From assembly GCA_030390025.1 (NCBI GenBank), contig CM059432.1, forward strand, positions 9,610,001 through 9,674,000: a stretch of 64,000 bases of DNA. The letters run 5' to 3'. How positions within the stretch are numbered: the stretch's first letter is position 1; every line of letters starts with the position of its first letter. The notes under the pieces were generated by a model. It was given only the letters and a program-made list of their open reading frames with translations, was not told the DNA's origin and ran no database searches. The DNA comes from Squalus acanthias. Lineage: Eukaryota. The position numbers were made by a program, and so were the translations under genes. Of the stretch, positions 4,980-63,920 are shown piece after piece.

Positions 4980-5724
4980 GGCCCAGAAATTCGTCCCAAT
5001 ACGGGAGAGTACGCACTGTGTACTCACCCGTATTCGGTCCCGAAGTGCCGGTTTATGTATGCACTGCGCATGCGCGGGAAACCGGTACTTCCGATATTGC
5101 GAAGGGGGCAGTTCCTAAGTGAACCGCGTGCGCACTACAGGCTGTGCGCACGCAGCACACTTAGGTTTTTTTTCAGGTTTGAACGCGAGGGTAAGTATGG
5201 AAGATTTTACACATGGAAAAAGGAGGCGTAAGACCCCCTTTTAACAAGGTAAGTAGTTAATTAAGTATTATTTTAAATTTTTTTCAACAGGTTTATCTTT
5301 TTTAGAGACTTTAAAGAAAGGTAAGTTTATTTTTATAACTTTTAAAAAGAATTTAAATTTTTGTTTAAAGTGGTTAATTTATTTAACTATAGTTATTTTA
5401 TTAATGTAATGGGTTTTTTTTAAATTTAATTGAGGTTTAGCTGTTCTTTTGGGGGCAAGTTGTATTCATAGTTTTGACAGTTCTCCTGTCAAAACTATGA
5501 ATGAAAGATGGTGTGCTGCCATTGGCTCTAACTGGCCCACGTGATCCCAGAGGTCGCATCGAACTAACTGCGCCTCTGGGACACGCACACACTGCGCGCC
5601 GGCACCAGGGAGAGGCCCAGGACCAGACATTCGTGTGGGCCCAAACCATAAAGGCAGGTGCGGTAGGTAAGATCGCGCCGGATCCTTACCCCCGCGGCAA
5701 CCATCGAAGTCTCATTTCTGGGCC
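4980..5724. mobile_element. MITE, Harbinger-type (11-bp TIR, 3-bp TSD)
   Basis: TIR GGCCCAGAAAT (4980-4990) / ATTTCTGGGCC (5714-5724); AAT on both sides; AT-rich non-coding core. Confidence 0.7.
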
Positions 5725-10900: not shown

Positions 10901-11419
10901 AATCTAATTCCCTTGCATTGTCGGAAACACTAATTCAAGCCTAACCTGCACCACTTGTGTCCTCACTACCAGCCTTTCCTTCTGCAGCTCAGACTCCCCT
11001 AATCCGCTCAGTTTAGCTCGGATTGCGAAGAGAGATAAATAGAAAGGAATGGAAAGGTTTTTTTTGTTACCATTGCAGGTACTGAGATATTTCAGCACTT
11101 TTACCCCACCCAGTGGTCACATCGTTTTTACACAACTGTTTGCTGCTTCTTAAAAGTAAAAGCAAGGGCAAATATTTAACGATGAAAATTACTGTTAAGC
11201 CCTCAACAAAAAGCAACAGATGCCTCCTGCATTATCGGGTGTGTTAGCCTCTCATCACCAGCGGTGACACCGACATCTGTACCGTGCTCTGGGGCAAAGC
11301 AGGGGGGTTCCGACAACTCATGCACAACTGGCAGATGCTACTTCCAACGGCAAGATATATGTGGAAGCTCTGTGTATCGCCTATGGATTCAGACACAAAG
11401 GAGCATGAACACGTCACAG

Positions 11420-12283
11420 GCCTTCTCCTCCCCTCCTCCCCTCCTCCTCTTCCCCTCCTCCCCTCCTCCTCTTCCTCCTCTTCCTTCTCCTCCCCTCCTC
11501 CTCTTCCTCCTCTTCCTTCTCCTCCCCTCCTACTCTTCCTTCTCCTCCCCTCCTCCCCTCCTCCTCTTCCTCCTCTTCCTTCTCCTCCCCTCCTCCCCTC
11601 CTACTCTTCCTTCTCCTCCCCTCCTCCCCTCCTCCTCTTCCTTCTCCTCCTCCTCTTCCTTCTCCTCCTCCTCTTCCTTCTCCTCCCCTCCTCCCCTCCT
11701 CCTCTTCCTCCTCTTCCTTCTCCTCCCCTCCTCCTCCTCCTCCTCTTCCCTCTCCTCCCCTCCTCCCCTCCTCCTCTTCCTTCTCCTCCCCTCCTCCCCT
11801 CCTCCTCTTCCTCCTCTTCCTTCTCCTCCCCTCCTCCTCTTCCCTCTCCTCCCCTCCTCCCCTCCTCCTCTTCCTCCTCTTCCTTCTCCTCCCCTCCTCC
11901 TCTTCCCTCTCCTCCCCTCCTCCCCTCCTCCTCTTCCTTTTCCTCCTTCTCCCCCTCCACCCGCTTCTCCCCTCCTCCTCTCCCCTTCCACTCCTCCACT
12001 CCTCCTCTCCCCTTCCCCTCCTCCTCCTCATTCTCCCCTCCTCCTCTCCCATTCATCCTCTACACTCCTCCTTCCTCCTCCTCTCCTCATCTTCCATCTC
12101 CCCTCCTCCTTCTCCCCCACCTCCTTCCTCCTCCCACTCCTCCCTTTCCTCCTTGCCCTCCCCTTTCTTCCCTCCTCCTTCCTTCTCCCCTCCTCTGTCC
12201 TTTGCCTCCTTCTCATCCTCCTTATCCACACCTCCTCCTTCTGCCCTTTCTACTTCCTTCTCGCCCTCACCCTCCTCCTCCTC
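11420..12283. repeat. Polypyrimidine/polypurine low-complexity tract (CTC/CTT units)
   Basis: About 860 bp almost entirely C/T on the + strand. Confidence 0.95.
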
Positions 12284-12619
12284 AAATACAAATCAATCGT
12301 GAGTCCGTAGAAGAATAAAGCAATCATTAGGTGAATTGTAAATCCAGTCAGGGACACACAGGGGCCTATGAGAGAGGATACAATTATATAATCGAGAGTT
12401 CTGATTCACTGCAATCTGGAGTAGTAGAAAGTTACATCAAGTGTACAGCACAGAAACAGGCCATTCGGCCCAACTGGTCTGTGCCAGTGTTTATGATTTA
12501 AACGATCCTCCTCCCACCCTATTTCATCTAGTCCCATCATCATATCCTTCTATTCCTTTCTCCCTCATGTACTTAGCTAGCTTCCCCTTAAATGCATCTA
12601 TGCTATCTTTTTTTTTAAT

Positions 12620-20522: not shown

Positions 20523-20847
20523 GAAAATGAACTAAAATGCAATTGAGTGTTTTCGATTTGTTTTACACGTGACTCGAGGTTCTTGGTTCGACGGGACAGC
20601 GGTTGCTATCTGGACGTCCAGTGCGTGGTAGAGGCAGCCTTGGTATTTAAATTCAGGCCAGGAAAGCAACGCGCGTCGGAGCTTTGGGTCAGGAATCTGG
20701 CTGCCAACAACGTTTCAAGAAATTGTTACTTTAAATGAAAAACAATATGCGAGTCTTACCTGCACACATTGGGAACTTGATCCGGTTATCTAAAAGGACC
20801 AGTCAGAAGCTAAAACAATCAGCGTACCAGACTAAATATAGGGGAAC

Positions 20848-20995
20848 AAAGGCAAAATTCTGCAGATGCTGGAGATCTGAAATATAAACAGCAAATGCTG
20901 TAAATACTCGGCAGGTCAGGCAGCGTTGGTGGAGAGAGAAACAGAGTTAACGTTTCAGGTCTATGACAAAAGGTCAACGACTTGAAACGTTAACT
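20848..20995 (-). mobile_element. Short Penelope-like terminal insertion (family 1) with inverted end
   Basis: Matches the 3' end of the Penelope at 34150-34245; 16-bp TSD CTAAATATAGGGGAAC at 20832-47 and 20996-21011. Confidence 0.8.
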
Positions 20996-21209
20996 CTAAA
21001 TATAGGGGAACCAGTAATTATCTGCAAAGGGAGAGAGGGAAACTGCACTCCCTTATAACATAAAATTACGTTGTGTTTACAGCACAGAAACAGGCCATTC
21101 AGCCCAACAGGTCCATGCCGGTGTTTATGCTCCTCACGAGCCTCCTCCCACCGTTCTCCATCTCACTCTATCAACATACCCTTCTATTGCTTTTCCCGCA
21201 TACTTATCC

Positions 21210-21525: not shown

Positions 21526-22335
21526 TCTTTTATCTAGCTTGCCCTTAAATGCATCTAATTCGCCTCAACCACTTCCTGCAGTAGCGAGTATGTGTGAGTC
21601 TTACATATAGGCTACCTGTTGGTCTTATTCTAATTGTGACGAGCATTTCACACACTCAGATTATAAATTAGGCTTCTTATGGCGTTCCTCAATAGAAGCA
21701 ACCGAGAATCTTAATCCGAATGAGAAATAAGCCCCTGATTTGCTGTGTTGCAGGTGCTGTATTATTTTTAGTGCATGATAGCAAACAGCGGTACTGCACA
21801 CACTGTGCACTCAGTGATATAATCAAAGCTAAAATCGAATGCATAATCATCAATACAATTCCTCCCCGCTGCAATCTTACGGAATGTTTTTAAAGGCTAC
21901 AGATGACCAGCTCTGTGAGAACTGTCAGATTTTTGCACTAAAATGAAAAAAGAATTCAAAAATGAGGGGGCAGTCCCAGGGTTTCAGTGCTGTCATGTGC
22001 TGACATATTACATTTGGGAAGTGTTGGTGATGCAAGTTCCACTCTGCCATTTCCCACACGGTGTATTACGAAGTATTTACAGCACAGAAACAGGCCATTC
22101 GGCCCAACTGGCCCATGCCGGTGTTTATGCTCCACACCAGCCTCCTCCCACCCTTCTTCATCTCACCCCATCAGCATATCTTTCTATTCCTTTCCCCCCT
22201 CATGTACTTATCCAGCTTCCCCTTAAATGCATCTGTGCTATTCGCCTCAACCACTCCATGTGGTAGCGCGTTGCACATTGTAAACACTCTCTGGGTAAAG
22301 AAGTTTCTCCTGAATTCCCTATCGGATTTATTAGT

Positions 22336-22638
22336 CATGATGCGGAGATGCCGGTGTTGGACTGGGGTGGACGAAAGTGAGAAGTCGCACAACACCAGGT
22401 TATAGTCCAACAGTTTTATTTGAAATCACAAGCTTTCGGAGCGCTGCTCCTTCGTCAGGTGAAGTGAAGGAATACGAATTGGCAAAGCATATATAGACAG
22501 AGAACAATGCATTGTTCTCTGTCTATATATGCTTTGCCAATTCGTATTCCTTCACTTCACCTGACGAAGGAGCAGCGCTCCGAAAGCTTGTGATTTCAAA
22601 TAAAACTGTTGGACTATAACCTGGTGTTGTGCGACTTC
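22336..22638 (-). mobile_element. Penelope-like terminal insertion (family 2) forming a perfect palindrome
   Basis: Arms 22379-22509 and 22510-22640 are exact reverse complements and match 41408-41538; TSD TCGGATTTATTAGT at 22322-35 and 22639-52. Confidence 0.85.
22557..22593 (+). ncRNA. Minimal hammerhead ribozyme motif (mirror copy on minus in the left arm)
   Basis: TCAC-CTGACGA-A-GGAGC-AGC-GCTCC-GAAA-GCT-T-GTGA. Confidence 0.65.
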
Positions 22639-23477
22639 TCGGATTTATTAGTGACTATCTTATATTTATGGCCCCTAGTTCTGGTCTCACCTGCAAGTGG
22701 AAACATCTCCTCTCCGTCTACCCTATCAAACCCTTTTATAATCTTAAAGACCTCTAGCAAGTCAACCCTCAGTCTTCTCTTTTCTAGAGAAATGTGCCCC
22801 AACCTGTTCAATCTTTCCTGATAGGTATAACCTCTCAGCTCTGGTACCATTCTAGTAAATCTTTTTTGCCAATGCCGCTATATCTTTTTTTATAATATGG
22901 AGACCAGAACCGTTCACAGTCCCCCAAGTGTGGTCTAACCAAAGGTCTATACACGTTTAACATAACTTCTCTGCTTTGCAGTTCTATCCCTCCAGACATA
23001 AACCCTCGTGCTTGGTTTGCAATTTAATGGCCTTATTAACCTGCGTCGCTACTTTTAATAATTTGTGTATCTGCACCCCCAGATCCCTCTGTTCCTTTAC
23101 CCCATTTAGACACTATCCAAGGAGTGTGTGGCCCCCTTCTTCTTCCTACCAAAATGTACCACCTCACACTTATCTATATTGAAGTTCATTTGCCAATTAC
23201 ACTCCCATTCTTCAAGTTTATTAATGTCTTCCTGTAGTTTGTCGCAGTCCTCCTCTGTATTAACTACACCTCCCAATTTGGTGTCAGCCGCAAATTTTGA
23301 AATTGTACTTCCTGTGTGTGATATTCGAGGTAAAGTCACACGGCCTAAAGTGGTGTAGAACAGAATGGACGCATTGCTTCCTGAGAAGTAGAAGGAATAA
23401 ACAAGGAGGGTGAGTCAATCACCTTTGTCCTGCATCATCTACTAGAACAGCAATAGAAGCCTGGAAGAGGTTTGTAG

Positions 23478-24972: not shown

Positions 24973-25649
24973 ACGATAAGAGGGAGAGAATGCTCAGGGG
25001 TAAAGTAAACGGGTGTCCCTTGTGGGGGATGGGGGCATGACACATGTAATGAGTTGAGTCTTCACATTGTAAAGGTGATTCTAATGAGCTTAAACAATAG
25101 GCAGTCTGGATTCAGCAAGATTAGCAGGCATGTTTGTGTTGCTGGAATTTAAACAGGAGAAACATTATAATTACCGGTTCGCAACAAGGTTAATAATCAG
25201 TAATTAAACTATTTCTCCTGTTTAATAATCAGCATCAGCATTAAAATAGAATCACTAACAATGCTCTTAAATCTTAAAGACCTATTATAGAACGTAAATT
25301 AAATTAAATATTCATGCAGCCAGATACAGAAGTTAAACAGTCAAAGGATTACTGTGTTTTTTTTAATAAGCCTACCAACATGGCAATGTAGAGCTAATTC
25401 ATAACTACTGAAATCTGATAACTATAAATCTGCCCCAACTTTGTTGAAAGAATTCCATAGGATCTGTTTAAAACACTTTAATAAAGATTACTTTCGTAGG
25501 CTTTTAAATAATGACCGTATTGGTCGATTCCCCGAAGCAACTCATCACTTCATCTACTCAGTATTCTTTTTCTCCTGTGTTTATACCTTCTCTTTGCTCC
25601 TGAAGGCACTGACTCACACTGGGAAACGGGGGGTGAAATTGGTATTCAG

Positions 25650-29757: not shown

Positions 29758-31816
29758 AACATAAGAACATAAGAACATAAGAAATAGGAGCAGGAGTAGG
29801 CCAATCGGCCCCTCGAGCCTGCTCCGCCATTCAATAAGATCATGGCTGATCTGATCCTAACCGCCAATCTACTATCTATCACAGAACCATCTCCTGCATC
29901 TAACAGAATTGCACACACGAAATAGGAGCAGAATCAGGCTACAAGGTCCCTGGGCCCGCTCCACTACCCACAGGGCCATGACCGATCCGAACCTAGACTC
30001 ATGTCCAAATTCCTGCCCGCTCCCCGTAACCCTTAATGCCCTTTACTTCTAGGAAACTGTCTATTTCTGTTTTAAATTTATTTAATGATGTAGCTTCTAC
30101 AGCTTTTTGTGGCAGCATATTCCATGGACCTACCACCCTCTGAGTGAAGTAGTTCCTCCTCATCTCAGTTTTGAAAGAGCAGCCCCTTATTCTAAGACTA
30201 TGTCCCCTAGTTCTAGTCTCACCCATCATCGGGAACATCCTCCCCGCATCCACCCGATCCAACCCCTTCACAATCTTATATGTTTCAATAAGATCGCCTC
30301 TCATTCTTCTGAACTCCAATGAGTAGAGTCCCAATCTACCCAACCTCTCCTCATATGACCACCCCCTCATCCCCGGGATTAACCGAGTGAACCTTTTTTG
30401 CACTGCCTCGAGAGCAAGGATGTCTTTCCTTAAGTAAGGACACCAAAACTGTATGCAGTATTCCAGGTGCGGTCTCACCAATACCTTGTACAACTGAAGC
30501 AATACCTCCCTATTTTTATATTCTATCCCCCTAGCAATGAAAGCCAACATTCCATTTGCCTTCTTAATCACTTGCTGCACCTGCATACTAACCTTTTGAG
30601 TTTCGTGCACCAGGACCCCCAGATCCCTTTGCACTTCAGTACTCTCCAGTTTCTTGCCATTAAGATAATAAATTGCTCTGCTATTTTTCCTGCCAAAGTG
30701 CATCACCTCACACTTTCCAGTGTTGTATTCCATCTGCCAAATCTCTGCCCACTTACTTAGCCTGTCTATGTCCCCTTGCAGGTTTTTTATGTCCTCCTCA
30801 CTCACTACTTTCCCTCCCATCTTTGTATCATCTGCAAATTTTGATATGTTACACTTGGTCCCTTCCTCTAAATCGTTAATATAGATTGTAAAGAGTTGGG
30901 GACCCAGCACTGACCCCTGTGGAACACCACTAGTTACTGATTGCCAGTCTGAGAATGAACCATTTATCCCAACTCTTTGCTTTCTGTTAGATAGCCAATC
31001 CTCTATCCATGCCAGAATATTACCCCCAATCCCGTGATTTTTTACCTTAAGCAATAATCTTTTGTGTGGCACCTTGTCAAATGCCTTTTGGAAGTCTAAA
31101 TACACTACGTCCACTGGTTCCCCTTTATCCACTCTATATGTTACTTCCTCAAAGAACTCCAGCAAATTTGTCAAACATGACTTCCCCTTCGTAAAACCAT
31201 GCTGACTTTGTCCTATTAAATTATGATTATCCAAACGTCCTGTTACTGTTTCCTTAATAATGGACTCCAAAATTTTACCTACCACAGATGTTAGGCTAAC
31301 CGGTCTATAGTTACCAGCCTTCTGTCTACTGCCCTTTTTAAATAAGGGTGTTACATTAGCAGTTTTCCAGTCTGCCGGGACCTGAGCGGAATCCAGGGAG
31401 TTTTGAAAAATTATTACCAATGCATCTACAATCCCTACCGCCACTTCCTTCAAGACTCTAGGATGTAAGCCATCAGGTCCAGGTGATTTATCCGCCTTGA
31501 GTCCCATTATTTTACCGAGTACCACTTCCTTAGTGATTTTGATCGTGTTTAGCTCCTCTCCCCCTATAGCCCCCTGTTTGTCCAGTGTTGGGATATTCTT
31601 AGTGTCCTCTACTGTAAAGACTGATACAAAATATTCATTCAGTGTTTTTGCCATCTCCATATTTCCCACCATTAATTTCCCGGTCTCATCCTCTAAGGGA
31701 CCAACATTTACTTTAGCCACCCTTTTTCTTTTTATGTAACTATAAAAACTCTTACTATCTGTTTTTATATTTTTTGCTAATTTACTTTCATAATCTATCT
31801 TCCCTTTCTTAATCAA
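29758..31816 (-). mobile_element. 5'-truncated, apparently young CR1 LINE
   Basis: Uninterrupted 605-codon ORF2 fragment, 3' UTR and (CTTATGTT)n tail. Confidence 0.95.
29999..31816 (-). CDS. CR1 ORF2 reverse transcriptase (partial; endonuclease domain missing)
   Basis: KSPGPDGLHPRVLKE, NYRPVSLTS, YLDFQKAFDKVPH, GVPQGSVLGP, KFADDTK. Confidence 0.92.
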   Translation of the reverse strand: MIKKGKIDYESKLAKNIKTDSKSFYSYIKRKRVAKVNVGPLEDETGKLMVGNMEMAKTLNEYFVSVFTVEDTKNIPTLDKQGAIGGEELNTIKITKEVVLGKIMGLKADKSPGPDGLHPRVLKEVAVGIVDALVIIFQNSLDSAQVPADWKTANVTPLFKKGSRQKAGNYRPVSLTSVVGKILESIIKETVTGRLDNHNLIGQSQHGFTKGKSCLTNLLEFFEEVTYRVDKGEPVDVVYLDFQKAFDKVPHKRLLLKVKNHGIGGNILAWIEDWLSNRKQRVGINGSFSDWQSVTSGVPQGSVLGPQLFTIYINDLEEGTKCNISKFADDTKMGGKVVSEEDIKNLQGDIDRLSKWAEIWQMEYNTGKCEVMHFGRKNSRAIYYLNGKKLESTEVQRDLGVLVHETQKVSMQVQQVIKKANGMLAFIARGIEYKNREVLLQLYKVLVRPHLEYCIQFWCPYLRKDILALEAVQKRFTRLIPGMRGWSYEERLGRLGLYSLEFRRMRGDLIETYKIVKGLDRVDAGRMFPMMGETRTRGHSLRIRGCSFKTEMRRNYFTQRVVGPWNMLPQKAVEATSLNKFKTEIDSFLEVKGIKGYGERAGIWT

Positions 31817-31881
31817 TAATGGGACGCAATCGTTCCTTTTTTATTCTTTCTTTCTTCCTGGATGTGTTTAAAAGCGGTGAG

Positions 31882-33032: not shown

Positions 33033-34245
33033 AACAGAAAATGCTGGAAATACTCAGCAGGCCAGGCAGCATCTGTGGAGAGAGAAACAGAGTTACCGGC
33101 TGGAATTTTCTGGGGTGGTAGCGGGCGCGATCGGTGGCAGGTCGGGTGGGAAAGTTGTTATTTTTTGACAGTGGGTCGGGAACCCGCCATCATCTCGCTC
33201 CCACGTGCCTTTCCCCCAAGCAAGTCTGTGATCGCACAGCTGACCCGACCGGCAGCAGCGGGCGACCCAATGGAAATCATTATCAGGTAGTTTACAGGCG
33301 TTTAAGAGCACCGATACAGTCATCAATGTACCAGAAAAAGAGGTGAGGGAGGGGACCTGAGTAGGACTGGAACAAAGAATGTTCCACATATCCCACGAAA
33401 AGGCAGGCTCCCTCTGCAACACCCTGGTCCACTCCTCTATCACCCCCAACACCCCTTCCCCTTCGCCCGGCACCTTCACGTGCAAGCGCAGGAGATGCAA
33501 CACCTGCCCTTTAACCTCCTCCCTTCCCACTGTCCAGGGCCCCAAACACTCCTTCCAGGTGAAACAGTGATTTACTTGTACTTCTTGCAATTTAGTATAC
33601 TGTATTCGCTGCTCACGATGTGGTCTCCTCTACTTTGGGGAGGTGACCGCTTTGCAGAACAGCTCCGTTCAGTCCGTAAGGGGGACCCCGAGCTTCCGGT
33701 CGCCTGTCACTTTAATTCTCCACTCCACTCCCACTCTGACCTCTCCGTCCTCGGCCTCTTACACTGTTCCAATGAGGCTCAATGTAAGCTCGAGGAACAG
33801 CACCTCATCTTTCGATTAGGCACTTTACAGCCTTCTGGACTCAACATCGAGTTCAACAATTTCAGACCATAACCTCTGCCCCTATCTTTTAAAAAAAAAA
33901 TTCTCTCTCTCACATGGCAGCTGTCGATCATTCTGCCATTGCCATTCACACGTCATCTAGAGTCATCTTTTGTTCCTTAACTTGTCTCATTACCATCTCC
34001 TTTTGCCTTGCACCATCATCCCTTTTGTCTCTTAATCTCTCCTGCCTTCCATCCTATCACAGACCTTCCCTTTTGTTCTTTCCTCCCCTCCGCCCTTTCC
34101 CTGCCCCTGCACTTGCTTAAAAGCCTGTTCCATCTCCAACTTTTTCCAGTTCTGACGAAGGGTCGCCGACCTGAAACGTTAACTCTGTTTCTCTCTTCAC
34201 AGATGCTGCCTAACCTGCTGAGTATTTCCAGCATTTTCTGTTTTT
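33033..34245 (+). mobile_element. Penelope-like element (family 1), 3' part with inverted terminal copy
   Basis: Decayed GIY-YIG region (CKRRRCNTC..FTCTSCNLVYCIRCSRCGLLY..PVACHFN..KLEEQHLIFRLGTLQPSGLN); 33033-33095 is the inverse of 34180-34242. Confidence 0.88.
34148..34184 (+). ncRNA. Minimal hammerhead ribozyme motif
   Basis: AGTT-CTGACGA-AGGGTC-GCC-GACCT-GAAA-CGT-T-AACT. Confidence 0.65.
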
Positions 34246-34289
34246 AAGCCACTTCTAAAGGTGCACACAAATCAGTCCAAGAGTGCCCC

Positions 34290-38220: not shown

Positions 38221-38305
38221 CGACCTGAAACGTTAACTCTGTTTCTCTCTTCACAGATGCTGCCTGACCTGCTGTGTATCTCCAGCATTTTCTGTTTTTA
38301 TTTCT
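38221..38305 (+). mobile_element. Penelope family 1 terminal fragment
   Basis: Matches 34168-34245. Confidence 0.75.
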
Positions 38306-41370: not shown

Positions 41371-41407
41371 AATGGCCCTTCCTGCAGCGATGGCCCTTCC
41401 CTTTAAT

Positions 41408-41965
41408 GAGAAGTTGCACAACACCAGGTTATAGTCCAACAGTTTTATTTGAAATCACGAGCTTTCGGAGCGCTGCTCCTTCGTCAGGTAAAGTGAAGGA
41501 ATACAAATCAGCAAAGCATATATAGACAGAGAACAATGTGTAGCGTACAATGTCAGACGACTACAGTAAATCTTACTGACTGCCCTCCATCACACCTCTG
41601 CAGAGATACAATCAGGTCAGTCAGGAAGGCATTACATCAAAGACACAGCAAAATACAGCTAAGACAATGAGGTGGGGTCACAGGGGGTCCAACGTGTCAA
41701 ATGCTGCAGTCTGTATGGTTAAGCTTTTTACTTTTTTAAAAAACTGGAAATCACATCTGTGAACAAGCCAACGACGACTCGAGTCTGGATGACTCTACGT
41801 CATGTGGCGTGACATGAACCCAAGATCCCGGTTGAGGCCGTCCTCATGGGTGCGAAACTTGGCTATCAGTTTCTGCTCGATGATTTTGCGTTGTCGTGTG
41901 TCTCGAAGGCCACCTTGGAGAACGCTTACCCGCAGATCCGAGGCTGAATGTCCTTGACTGCTCAC
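41408..41965 (-). mobile_element. Penelope-like element (family 2), 3' end
   Basis: GIY-YIG C-terminus HSASDLRVSVLQGGLRDTRQRKIIEQKLIAKFRTHEDGLNRDLGFM, then 3' UTR with hammerhead. Confidence 0.82.
41455..41491 (-). ncRNA. Minimal hammerhead ribozyme motif with canonical UC cleavage site
   Basis: TTAC-CTGACGA-A-GGAGC-AGC-GCTCC-GAAA-GCT-C-GTGA. Confidence 0.7.
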
Positions 41966-43094
41966 CTTCCCTTTAAGGGAGGGAAGGAGCCTCGGATCGC
42001 GACAGCGCTGCACCCCTCCTGCCCCGCCTGGGTCCTTTAGCGCTCCAGGAAAGAAGACACTGCAGCCACGGTACGCCGGTGGCGGAGGGAGTGAACGCTG
42101 AAGGTGGTGGATGGGGTGCCAAACCATTTGTATGCATTGTATACATCAGAGTCTCTGCCGGACAAACAGGTGCCATTTAGTATTTATGAGGGTTTATACT
42201 ACGCAACAAAATGATTCAAATGGCTTATTACCTCAGTCTGACCTAGTATTACAGTTAACAAAACACTTCAGTCCCAATTACACAGAAGCTAAATTGCGTT
42301 TTTAAACCAAGGCGCCACTCTTCCCCACATTCCTTTCTCTTCATTGTAATAGAAACGTCTGGAGGCAGAATCTGAATACATGCGAGTGACAAGAGAGAGA
42401 TTAGTATGGAATTACTAGGTAACATCTGTTTAGAGGGAAAATGAATCAGACTGAACCGTAAAAATCACACGGGCGAATCGGAACCTATGAGTGTAAAAAT
42501 GAGGCCAGGTTTTAATTTAAAAAAAAAATACACATTACCGCTAAGTGATTATCAAATTGTGATAACTCTGAAACATATTCTACACCGCCTGTTTGCTCCT
42601 GTCGGGGGAGACTGACCTCCGCGCATTGTTCCCGCTGCTATATTTGTAAATTCAGATGGCTTTCAGGTGCCAAGGCATTTCCATATAAAAGGATTGTATT
42701 GTTCCCTATAGATCTCTTGTGCAGCTGTGCATTTAAAGACGTCTTAACTATTGTACCAGGATTCACTCAGGGGCCTGCCAGTAATTCTGTAACTGTATCC
42801 TATTGTCTGCAATTCCAAAGAACATACTCGTCCTCACTTCACGGCAAGCATGAGTCCATACAACTCATGTATTGTTATCTGCAGCAACCCACAGCTGCGA
42901 TTATATTTTCCCTTGTTTTATTTCAGATACTGGGAGATTCGGTTCCAGGCATTTAGACTGACAAATCCAGCTCCTTATCTCAGCATTAGACTTGTTGGCC
43001 TGGCTCTTATTGTGGGCCCGCGCCTCGGCCGCTGGGAGAATGGAGTCGCGGTATCGTCACGTAAAGAGAGGGAGGGGGCCAACAGATGGATGGG

Positions 43095-53989: not shown

Positions 53990-54753
53990 GTCGAAGGGAC
54001 CGCTCCCTCCGCCACACCCTGGTCCACTCCTCAATCACAGCCAACAGCCCCTCCCCTTCCCACAGCACCTTCCCGTGCAAGCGCAGGAGATGCAACACCT
54101 GCCCTTTAACCTCCTCCCTTCCCACTGTCCAGGGCCCCAAACACTCCTTCCAGGTGAAACTGCGATTTACTTGTACTTCTTGCAATTTAGTATACTGCAT
54201 TCGCTGCTCACGATGCAGGTCTCCTCTACATTGGGGAGACCAAACGCAGATTGGGTGACCGCTTTGCGGAACACCCCCGTTCCGTCCGTAAGAGTGACCC
54301 CGAGCTTCCGGTCGCCTGTCACTTTAATTCTCTGCTCCACTCCCACTCCGACCTTTCTGTCCTCGGTCTCTTATACTGTTCCAATGAAGCTCAACGTAAG
54401 CTCGAGGAACAGCACCTCATCTTTCGATGAGGCACTTTACAGCCTTCTGGACTCAACACTGAGTTCAACAATTTCAGACTATAACCCCCCATTTTTTCAG
54501 GTGGCAGCTGTTGATGATCCTGCCATCCCCATTTGCAACATTTAACCACTCCTGCCTTCCACCCCATCACAGACCATCCCTTTTGTGCTTTCCTCCCCCT
54601 CCCCCCTTTCCCTGCCTCTGCACCTGCTTAAAATCTGTTACATCCCTAACTTTTTCCAGTTCTGATGAAGGGTCACAGACCCTGAAACGTTGACTCTGTT
54701 TCTCTCTCCACGGATGCTGCCTGGCCTGCTGAGTGTTTCCAGCATTTTCTGTT
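53990..54753 (+). mobile_element. Penelope-like element (family 1), 3' part
   Basis: Close paralogue of 33400-34245, including the GIY-YIG region. Confidence 0.88.
54658..54695 (+). ncRNA. Minimal hammerhead ribozyme motif
   Basis: AGTT-CTGATGA-AGGGTC-ACA-GACCCT-GAAA-CGT-T-GACT; perfect 6-bp stem II. Confidence 0.7.
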
Positions 54754-55094
54754 GTTAATGGAAACACCATCTCATTTCATCAGTCCTTCAACATATTCCT
54801 CACTGGCGTAGCTGAGTGAAAAGATAAGCGAAAGTTATTTGACCTGTTCCACACTGGGCTATAATGGAGGACACCCTCACTCCATTTCATTAACCCATGT
54901 TTGTCTACTTTGTATTTCTGAATTTCGAAGTCAGCACCATGTCGTGCCATACAAATTAAATCATTATCTTGCATTGCAATTTGTAAGTTCTTTGTTTTTA
55001 TCTTCCAGCATTAGGATTGGAGTGAACCTCTCTGGGCGGACTTCAGTGTTGAATTTGTTCTTTGGGCGCTGTGATGTTGGGTCCACTCGCAGAA

Positions 55095-63390: not shown

Positions 63391-63825
63391 ATGTTAGTTC
63401 TATGTAATTAGATTTAATTAATTTACCTTGCAGGTGGTGAATGTGTGAAATGGACTGCCTGAGGGAGACAGTGGAGGTGGATTGTGCTGATAGATTCAAG
63501 AGGGAGTTTGCATGAATATTTAACAAGGGAAGTGATCAAAGGATATGAGAGCGTGATTATATGATAGTTTTCAGACTTTGAGACTGGCTTGATGAATCAC
63601 AATGGTCTTTGCAGTCCTGGACATCCATAACGTTTGTTAATTCATTATAAGGTGCTAAGAATCATAGGAGAAACACTCACGTTTGAATGATCTGTTAGCA
63701 CATTGTCTCCCAGACCCTAGCATTTTTTTAATGAACATATACTTTGTCAATACATAGATTAAACTGAGGAATTTTGTGCTCAAAGATTTAAAAAAAGTTA
63801 AACACCCAATTTTCCCAGATATACT

Positions 63826-63920
63826 AAAAACAGAAAATGCTGGAAACACTCAGCAGGTCAGGCAGCATCTGTGGAGAGAGAAACAGAGTTAACTTTCCAG
63901 GTCGATGACCTTTTGTCAGA
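63826..63920 (-). mobile_element. Penelope family 1 terminal fragment with degenerate hammerhead
   Basis: Minus strand reads TCTGACAAAAGGTCATCGACCTGGAAAGTTAACTCTG. Confidence 0.75.

Follow-up and report, generated by a model that had tools for sequence, protein, structure and literature searches.

The window considered here is the whole 64-kb stretch of DNA that was analysed. An exhaustive scan of it finds one exact spacer-less palindrome of 262 bp (22379-22640), whose arms of 131 nt meet at an axis between 22509 and 22510, with ATG on the left and CAT on the right. The runner-up in the 64 kb has arms of just 7 nt, and a palindrome of this structure is present in one copy in the window. A 43-nt extension (22336-22378) is found on the left side alone. 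An earlier note, made from the letters, had described the palindrome, its centre and this left-only extension, and the scan confirmed all three. The features of the locus and of the related Penelope-like element (PLE) copies are as follows, with TSD denoting the target site duplication.

22065..23315, minus strand: host CR1-type LINE relic, ORF2 C-terminus and 3' region; ends approximate
22322..22335, no strand: left TSD copy, 14 bp (12 bp without the first two nucleotides), exact repeat
22336..22378, minus strand: PLE tail, 43 nt; the element's tail-bearing 3' end lies at its outer end
22379..22509, minus strand: left arm (pseudo-LTR), last 131 nt of the PLE 3' end, 95.4% identical to 41408-41538
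22426..22462, minus strand: left-arm hammerhead, minimal type I, with C3 at 22458 and a predicted cut after 22430
22507..22512, no strand: self-complementary centre ATGCAT, candidate annealing point of both copies
22510..22640, plus strand: right arm, 131 nt, fully (100%) complementary to the left one; it terminates at the tail-less end
22557..22593, plus strand: right-arm hammerhead, minimal type I, with C3 at 22561 and a predicted cut after 22589
22639..22652, no strand: right TSD copy, its first two nucleotides common to the arm
41407..41964, minus strand: tail-less direct copy of the same family, 558 bp, 5'-truncated, endonuclease C-terminus at 41801-41962, with its own hammerhead
20832-20847 / 20996-21011: TSD of a second-family insertion, 16 bp

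The 14-mer of the target site occurs exactly twice in the window (22322-22335 and 22639-22652), and its recurrence at a fixed place by chance would have a probability of about 5e-9. The duplicate is thus as exact as previously described, but its length is 12-14 bp and not simply 14 bp, because the first two nucleotides of the right copy double as the last two of the palindrome. The four closest CR1 paralogs carry T at the second target position, where the locus has C, and this does not settle the length. If the insert and one duplicate are removed, a continuous CR1 ORF2 frame results (...HKYKIV joined to TNKSDREF...). Among 28 BLAST matches to this empty-site model, all six that span the junction are without the insert, and the four closest matches (81-87%) contain the target once. 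The restored frame and the insert-free paralogs corroborate the claim that the insertion sits within a CR1 copy between the duplicated target. The host LINE, which we take to be CR1 from its protein motifs, shows ORF2 C-terminal motifs in translation with several breaks, is 81-87% identical to four paralogs in the window, and is related to a window ORF that matches RVT_1. The CpG observed/expected ratio is 0.9 in the palindrome versus 0.41 in the host CR1. Retained CpGs together with identical TSD copies suggest that the insertion is young. The arms face outward from the centre, so that their 5' ends lie together and their 3' ends at the flanks, one of them with the tail. Together these observations support the view that the palindrome is a young, single-event, head-to-head product of a PLE.

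Several other features of the window may be mentioned here. An uninterrupted CR1-type reverse transcriptase (RT) frame of 613 aa (29999-31840, minus strand; RVT_1, E 1.8e-30) belongs to a young 5'-truncated LINE, and about 900 bp at 11400-12300 are a pyrimidine-rich low-complexity repeat of CCT/CCTT type. Two small inverted repeats, at 5464-5502 (17-bp arms, 5-nt spacer) and 25149-25225 (14-bp arms, 49-nt spacer), were set aside as they have no TSD of at least 7 bp and no second match in the window. Pattern scans of metagenome, viral and genome contigs gave no match, and three distant plant-metagenome loci (29-31%) from a search for related loci were discarded.

The arms differ from 41408-41538 at six positions (95.4% identity), and this segment is contiguous with a 54-aa endonuclease frame. 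The match of the arms to a GIY-YIG element proposed earlier therefore holds, but the element at 41 kb is only a 558-bp stump that retains the last 54 endonuclease codons. Its TSD is 12 bp long (41395-41406 / 41965-41976). The frame shares 94% identity with the C-terminus of P0002, its closest named homolog, a cartilaginous-fish protein with an RT domain (RVT_1), a CX4CX2C linker and a GIY-YIG domain (YLIRC...YIG); the 55-aa endonuclease piece by itself gave no significant Pfam match. A CX2-5CxxC linker upstream of GIY-YIG is found in P0002 and 15 others of the 60 proteins retrieved. The 41-kb window copy is cut below this motif, and the linker was read from P0002. Such a linker is typical for the Neptune and Nematis clades and not for Penelope/Poseidon (PMC8557442). 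The arms are thus the 3' end of an endonuclease-bearing PLE, which the linker motif of this homolog places as probably of Neptune/Nematis type.

Neither the right arm nor the 41-kb copy has the tail, and their ends are only 1-3 nt apart. In other copies of the family (three contigs) the tail is contiguous with the arm, and translated look-alikes are present in P0013 and P0023. In EN+ PLEs the tail is expected to correspond to the sequence behind the upstream pseudo-LTR of a tandem, towards the start of the ORF; none of the 60 proteins retrieved continues the tail frame into an ORF. The tail region folds no better than shuffled sequences (z -1.1 to -1.4), of which 27-41 of 300, and 45 of 200 in a second run, fold as well as its stem-loop; a conserved tail structure was therefore dropped. 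As a side observation, the TSD of the 41-kb copy ends in TTTAA, and the empty site is an imperfect inverted repeat around TTAA.

As had been noticed before, each strand carries a hammerhead, one minimal motif per arm. A purpose-written descriptor returns five motifs in the 64 kb, every one within PLE copies: two belong to the palindrome (one per arm), one to the 41-kb copy, and two to a second PLE family. In the arm motifs the core is intact, stem I has 4 bp, an A is bulged, stem II has 5 bp with G10.1-C11.1, and a palindromic AGCU stands for helix III. Rfam gave no hammerhead match; its plant miRNA precursor matches were below the gathering scores, are expected of any long hairpin, and were rejected. 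The predicted RNA of the palindrome is a hairpin of 129 bp with a 4-nt loop (-256 and -246 kcal/mol for the two strands). A read-through RNA of either strand would contain one sense hammerhead, which in silico is fully paired within this stem. A double-stranded hairpin hiding its own ribozyme had been anticipated with a stem of 131 bp, so the burial (about -250 kcal/mol) stands and the stem is slightly shorter. The earlier note also considered such an RNA a possible endo-siRNA or ADAR substrate and suggested that the DNA could extrude a cruciform. Because the motifs are on opposite strands, one RNA holds only one of them and a dimer cannot form in cis, and co-folding of two hammerhead monomers did not return the catalytic dimer fold. 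The arms run 80 nt upstream past the ribozyme cut site, and the RNA template was therefore uncleaved. When 243 non-repeat frames were ranked by length and the 150 longest compared with Pfam, two weak sub-threshold matches resulted and no host exon was identified in the window.

For comparison with sequencing data, 4 of 24 listed runs were aligned, all as Logan contigs. The unique flank 21800-22092 is present at 99% or more in two samples of organism A (1-2 differences), either of which may have been the one assembled, and at about 95% in organisms B and C. The depth of 0 in B and C at four listed positions within 22476-22543 merely reflects lack of cover at 91% likeness. The family is abundant, with a summed arm depth thousands of times the flank depth, a ratio that is not a copy number. 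The arms agree with the family majority at all sites listed (40 of 45 rows) except 22480 and its mirror 22539, where the letter of the palindrome accounts for at most 0.47% (X1) and 1.3% (X2) of the family depth. This variant, a CpG-type transition, is the same in both arms, so both arms derive from one source. The tail has one rare variant in its 43 nt, and the 262 nt of the arms are free of asymmetric differences.

Among the best 15 of 953 joints listed, 11 are head-to-head joints of other copies, with arms of 51-88 nt, asymmetries of 1-34 nt and overlaps of 0-4 nt. Overlaps of 3-4 nt occur in 4 of these 11 versus 9% expected (p about 0.013), a weak statistic since the rows are selected and alignment edges can inflate overlaps. 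For ten of the 11 joints the interval between the arms is flagged as not known, and the remaining joint contains 11 additional letters in one run; many of the joints are located where alignments to related subfamilies may end. The match of one family contig to the left arm continues 1 nt beyond the axis, so that some copies carry a 2-nt GC overlap at the centre; the 41-kb copy has neither such an overlap nor a palindrome at this position. We also observed that the joints of other copies are concentrated at the upstream border of the hammerhead (22446-22466 to 22554-22590), which may partly reflect alignment edges, and that the joint from 22463 to 22590 lies on the predicted cut site, its 4-nt overlap being the stem-I complement. 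The depth of individual joints was rejected as a sign of multi-copy mini-families because contig depth is averaged over the high-copy arms.

Another head-to-head insertion (20848-20995), of the second PLE family, is located 1.3 kb upstream of the palindrome. It consists of a 35-nt one-sided extension, an 85-nt antisense arm and a 34-nt sense piece with a decayed hammerhead core, joined with a 4-nt overlap. The short arm stops 6 nt past the hammerhead cut site and not at the family end, and it has 3 mismatches to its partner over 25 sites. The predicted protein P0013 contains the antisense tail with the same start point, about 22 nt of arm, and then the sense endonuclease C-terminus, and reads as a head-to-head copy with strong asymmetry. 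The second family is represented by five further stumps (33033-33098, 33407-34246, 38221-38304, 54002-54757, and 63825-63920), whose ends all fall a few bases or less from a single site. Hammerhead motifs of this family are located at 34152 and 54662, and the stump 63825-63920 starts right at the hammerhead core. In addition, translated pieces of the PLE family are found in the shark isoforms P0003, P0014, P0016, P0023, P0024, and P0027 (XRCC5, PPP1R12A-like, FAM210B, septin 5a, FAM204A, and epsin 2), representing either exonisation or annotation artefacts.

The architecture of the locus is already known from PLEs, and what is unusual here is the degree: termini only, equal arms, and no spacer. 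Insertions of endonuclease-bearing (EN+) PLEs contain an inverted 5'-truncated copy and optionally a tail of 30-40 nt at one end (Craig et al. 2021, PMC8557442), and palindromes are found at the inverted junctions (Arkhipova et al. 2013, PMC3846280; PMC8969392), which Arkhipova et al. read as self-priming (PMC3846280). The insertion described here shares with them the head-to-head arrangement, the tail at one end, the TSD around the whole unit, the junction palindrome and the terminal hammerhead. In contrast to them it has no ORF and no direct pair of pseudo-LTRs (pLTRs), and only the two termini are left. Because the arms are equal and have no spacer, the whole unit is one palindrome of 262 bp, whereas the published junction palindromes, as far as described in those papers, measure 18-38 bp (PMC8557442, PMC3846280). 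The tail is 43 nt compared to 30-40 nt (PMC8557442), and the TSD 12-14 bp compared to 8-10 bp in Adineta (PMC8557442, PMC3846280).

The one PLE studied in vitro is PAc, a Poseidon-clade element from Anolis carolinensis, whose protein cleaves and extends both target strands (Frangieh et al. 2024, PMC11167929). Two-strand nicking by a PLE is known in vitro only from this element. Two RT start sites bracket the PAc tail, and unprocessed RNA is the main template (PMC11167929). The RNA is needed about 50 nt past the start, up to +172, with RT starting at +111 to +118 (PMC11167929). The study does not discuss inverted insertions (PMC11167929). Our locus resembles PAc in the two end positions bracketing the tail, the AT-rich target with ATT, and the hammerhead left uncut in insertions (PMC11167929). 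It differs in the CX4CX2C linker, in that no open frame overlaps the hammerhead in this family, and in a tail that folds like its shuffles. The hammerheads match the minimal ones of metazoan PLEs, whose monomers are inactive and whose dimers are weak (Cervera and De la Pena 2014, PMC4209133), in core, 4-bp helix I, extra nucleotide after position 9, G10.1-C11.1, and palindromic 15.2-16.2 (PMC4209133). Helix II has 5 bp here versus 7-8 bp in Schistosoma, where opposite-strand hammerhead pairs occur 100-700 bp apart (PMC4209133). Being short, non-coding and hammerhead-bearing, the unit is like metazoan retrozymes (PMC7229834), and being bounded by inverted repeats with a TSD it is like MITEs, which are also short and non-coding (PMC8969392). 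It is unlike both in that it is not a direct tandem unit, has a tail at one end, and consists entirely of a PLE 3' end.

Retrozymes are direct tandem units bounded by same-strand hammerheads. Here the motifs are on opposite strands in inverted arms, and the unit was not classified as a retrozyme. In twin priming of L1, both target strands prime cDNA in one event, resulting in an inversion within one TSD. The second L1 primer begins upstream on the RNA so that the inverted parts do not overlap, whereas both arms here copy the same 131 nt.

We consider the palindrome a dead-on-arrival product of one insertion by an endonuclease-bearing PLE, in which both nicked target strands were extended and then joined, and give this reading as a whole a probability of about 0.55. 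The GIY-YIG nuclease would nick both strands of the AT-rich site in the old CR1, 12-14 nt apart. Each freed 3' end would then prime reverse transcription on the uncleaved element RNA, the top strand starting at the outer (tail) site and the bottom strand at the inner (tail-less) site; the end positions are seen in the insertion, and the priming is deduced from them. Both cDNAs would be cut short and meet at the same position, where they may anneal via a self-complementary motif of 2-6 nt or join blunt. Two antisense cDNAs would pair only at inverted microhomologies, and a self-complementary motif would result in an exactly symmetric centre. Each cDNA would finally template the second strand of the other, and repair would fill the TSD. 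As part of this same reading, the two hammerheads would be passengers of the duplicated terminus and not a functional pair.

Priming from both ends is favoured by the clean TSD and the restorable CR1 frame, and by the right arm ending 1-3 nt from the 3' end of the direct copy at 41407, which must be a priming start. It is further favoured by PAc extending both strands and having two start sites around its tail, and by the arms passing the cut site by 80 nt, as expected from a mainly unprocessed template like that of PAc. The rare variant common to both arms, together with the 3-4-nt overlaps in 4 of the 11 listed joints, and the second-family insertion with its 4-nt overlap and 16-bp TSD, point in the same direction. 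However, the 41-kb copy is without a palindrome at the centre position, the second-family insertion fits only in part given its short-arm end and mismatches, and PAc as a Poseidon-clade element may not model a Neptune/Nematis-type family. The shared rare variant is equally predicted by fold-back and by conversion from arm to arm.

Fold-back in the literal sense, in which the 3' end of a tail-primed cDNA snaps back at the centre and copies itself and the endonuclease cuts or resolves the second arm at the tail-less site, seems rather unlikely to us. It would produce identical arms, a common rare variant and a zero spacer all at once. Palindromes at inverted PLE junctions have been interpreted in this way before (PMC3846280), and the tail has been attributed to endonuclease resolution (PMC8557442). 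However, snapping back at ATGCAT gives only 1-2 bp beside a 4-nt loop, and copying would continue through tail and flank unless stopped, but halts at the very start site of the direct copy. Later in vitro work places both tail ends at RT start sites (PMC11167929). A recent fold-back product had been proposed in the earlier note; a young head-to-head insertion made in one event is retained from this proposal, and the fold-back itself is less favoured because the right arm stops at the tail-less end of an ordinary direct copy, to which a second priming fits better. It is improbable that a less symmetric inverted PLE insertion was perfected later by gene conversion, spacer loss, or assembly polishing. 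Perfect palindromes tend to lose symmetry and not to gain it, and there was little time given the identical TSD copies and the CpG ratios. The variant in both arms is a transition of a type that normally arises in genomic DNA, the tail has a rare variant of its own in 43 nt compared to no arm asymmetry in 262 nt, and the other listed joints are all asymmetric by 1-34 nt, which would speak for later perfection; however, a donor locus that already had both variants needs no extra steps.

The same earlier note had alternatively suggested a non-autonomous, ribozyme-bearing mini-element; as such, the insertion would itself be copied as a 305-bp unit. The TSD and both element ends are indeed present, and non-autonomous PLE derivatives such as MRC1 exist (PMC8557442). 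However, this centre is found in none of the 11 listed head-to-head joints (best 15 of 953), the diagnostic variants are rare in the family, and the RNA would be a 129-bp hairpin that buries the hammerhead and the inner start site. In addition, PAc needs about 50 nt of RNA beyond the start site and nothing past the tail is present in this stump. Thus, we regard the mini-element as very doubtful. An artefact of assembly or library fold-back is the least credible, and the palindrome is real as far as the assembly shows. The best 32 of 214,828 contig pieces include none that spans the palindrome centre or a junction, but a perfect palindrome is a place where de Bruijn contigs should break, and this absence is therefore uninformative either way. 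A TSD of 12-14 bp, a tail on one side, collinear CR1 flanks and a right terminus at the family end would not result from an artefact, and the unique flank was recovered from both samples of organism A.

Within two-ended priming, we tentatively put forward a more specific and less probable variant, in which a dimeric PLE enzyme uses a single RNA molecule for priming from both target ends. The inner site would be served by one subunit and the outer (tail) site by the other, and the two copies would reach the same RNA 5' end or anneal near it. If true, this would explain the one-sided tail, the arms identical down to rare variants, and the often near-equal arm lengths (asymmetry of 1-34 nt in the 11 listed joints and 0 at this palindrome). 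The very unequal arms in P0013 and 20848-20995 count against it as a general rule. It would also tie the two-strand extension by PAc to the long-unexplained inverted pLTR. We have not found this model stated in the literature surveyed, which does not cover several classic PLE papers. Likewise, the survey, with the classic 2005-2008 papers outside its range, returned no report of ORF-less, spacer-less PLE palindromes in sharks and none linking two-strand extension to the inverted PLE copy, and the literature search found no paper on palindrome stability.

The locus is one of many PLE stumps and probably without function. Its value is that of a clean record of PLE insertion chemistry, hinting at how both halves arise in one insertion, and the origin of the inverted copy and of the one-sided tail is still called unresolved (PMC8557442; PMC11167929). 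Perfect palindromes of more than 200 bp are rare in the human genome, for which 718 near-perfect ones are cited, and have been linked to breakage (PMC7999016). If insertions like the one described here are common, PLEs would be a steady source of perfect palindromes of more than 200 bp, and inside transcribed regions such palindromes are predicted to give long double-stranded RNA, as a general consequence. Shark genomes with thousands of such stumps would permit a direct test of whether both halves are copied from one RNA.
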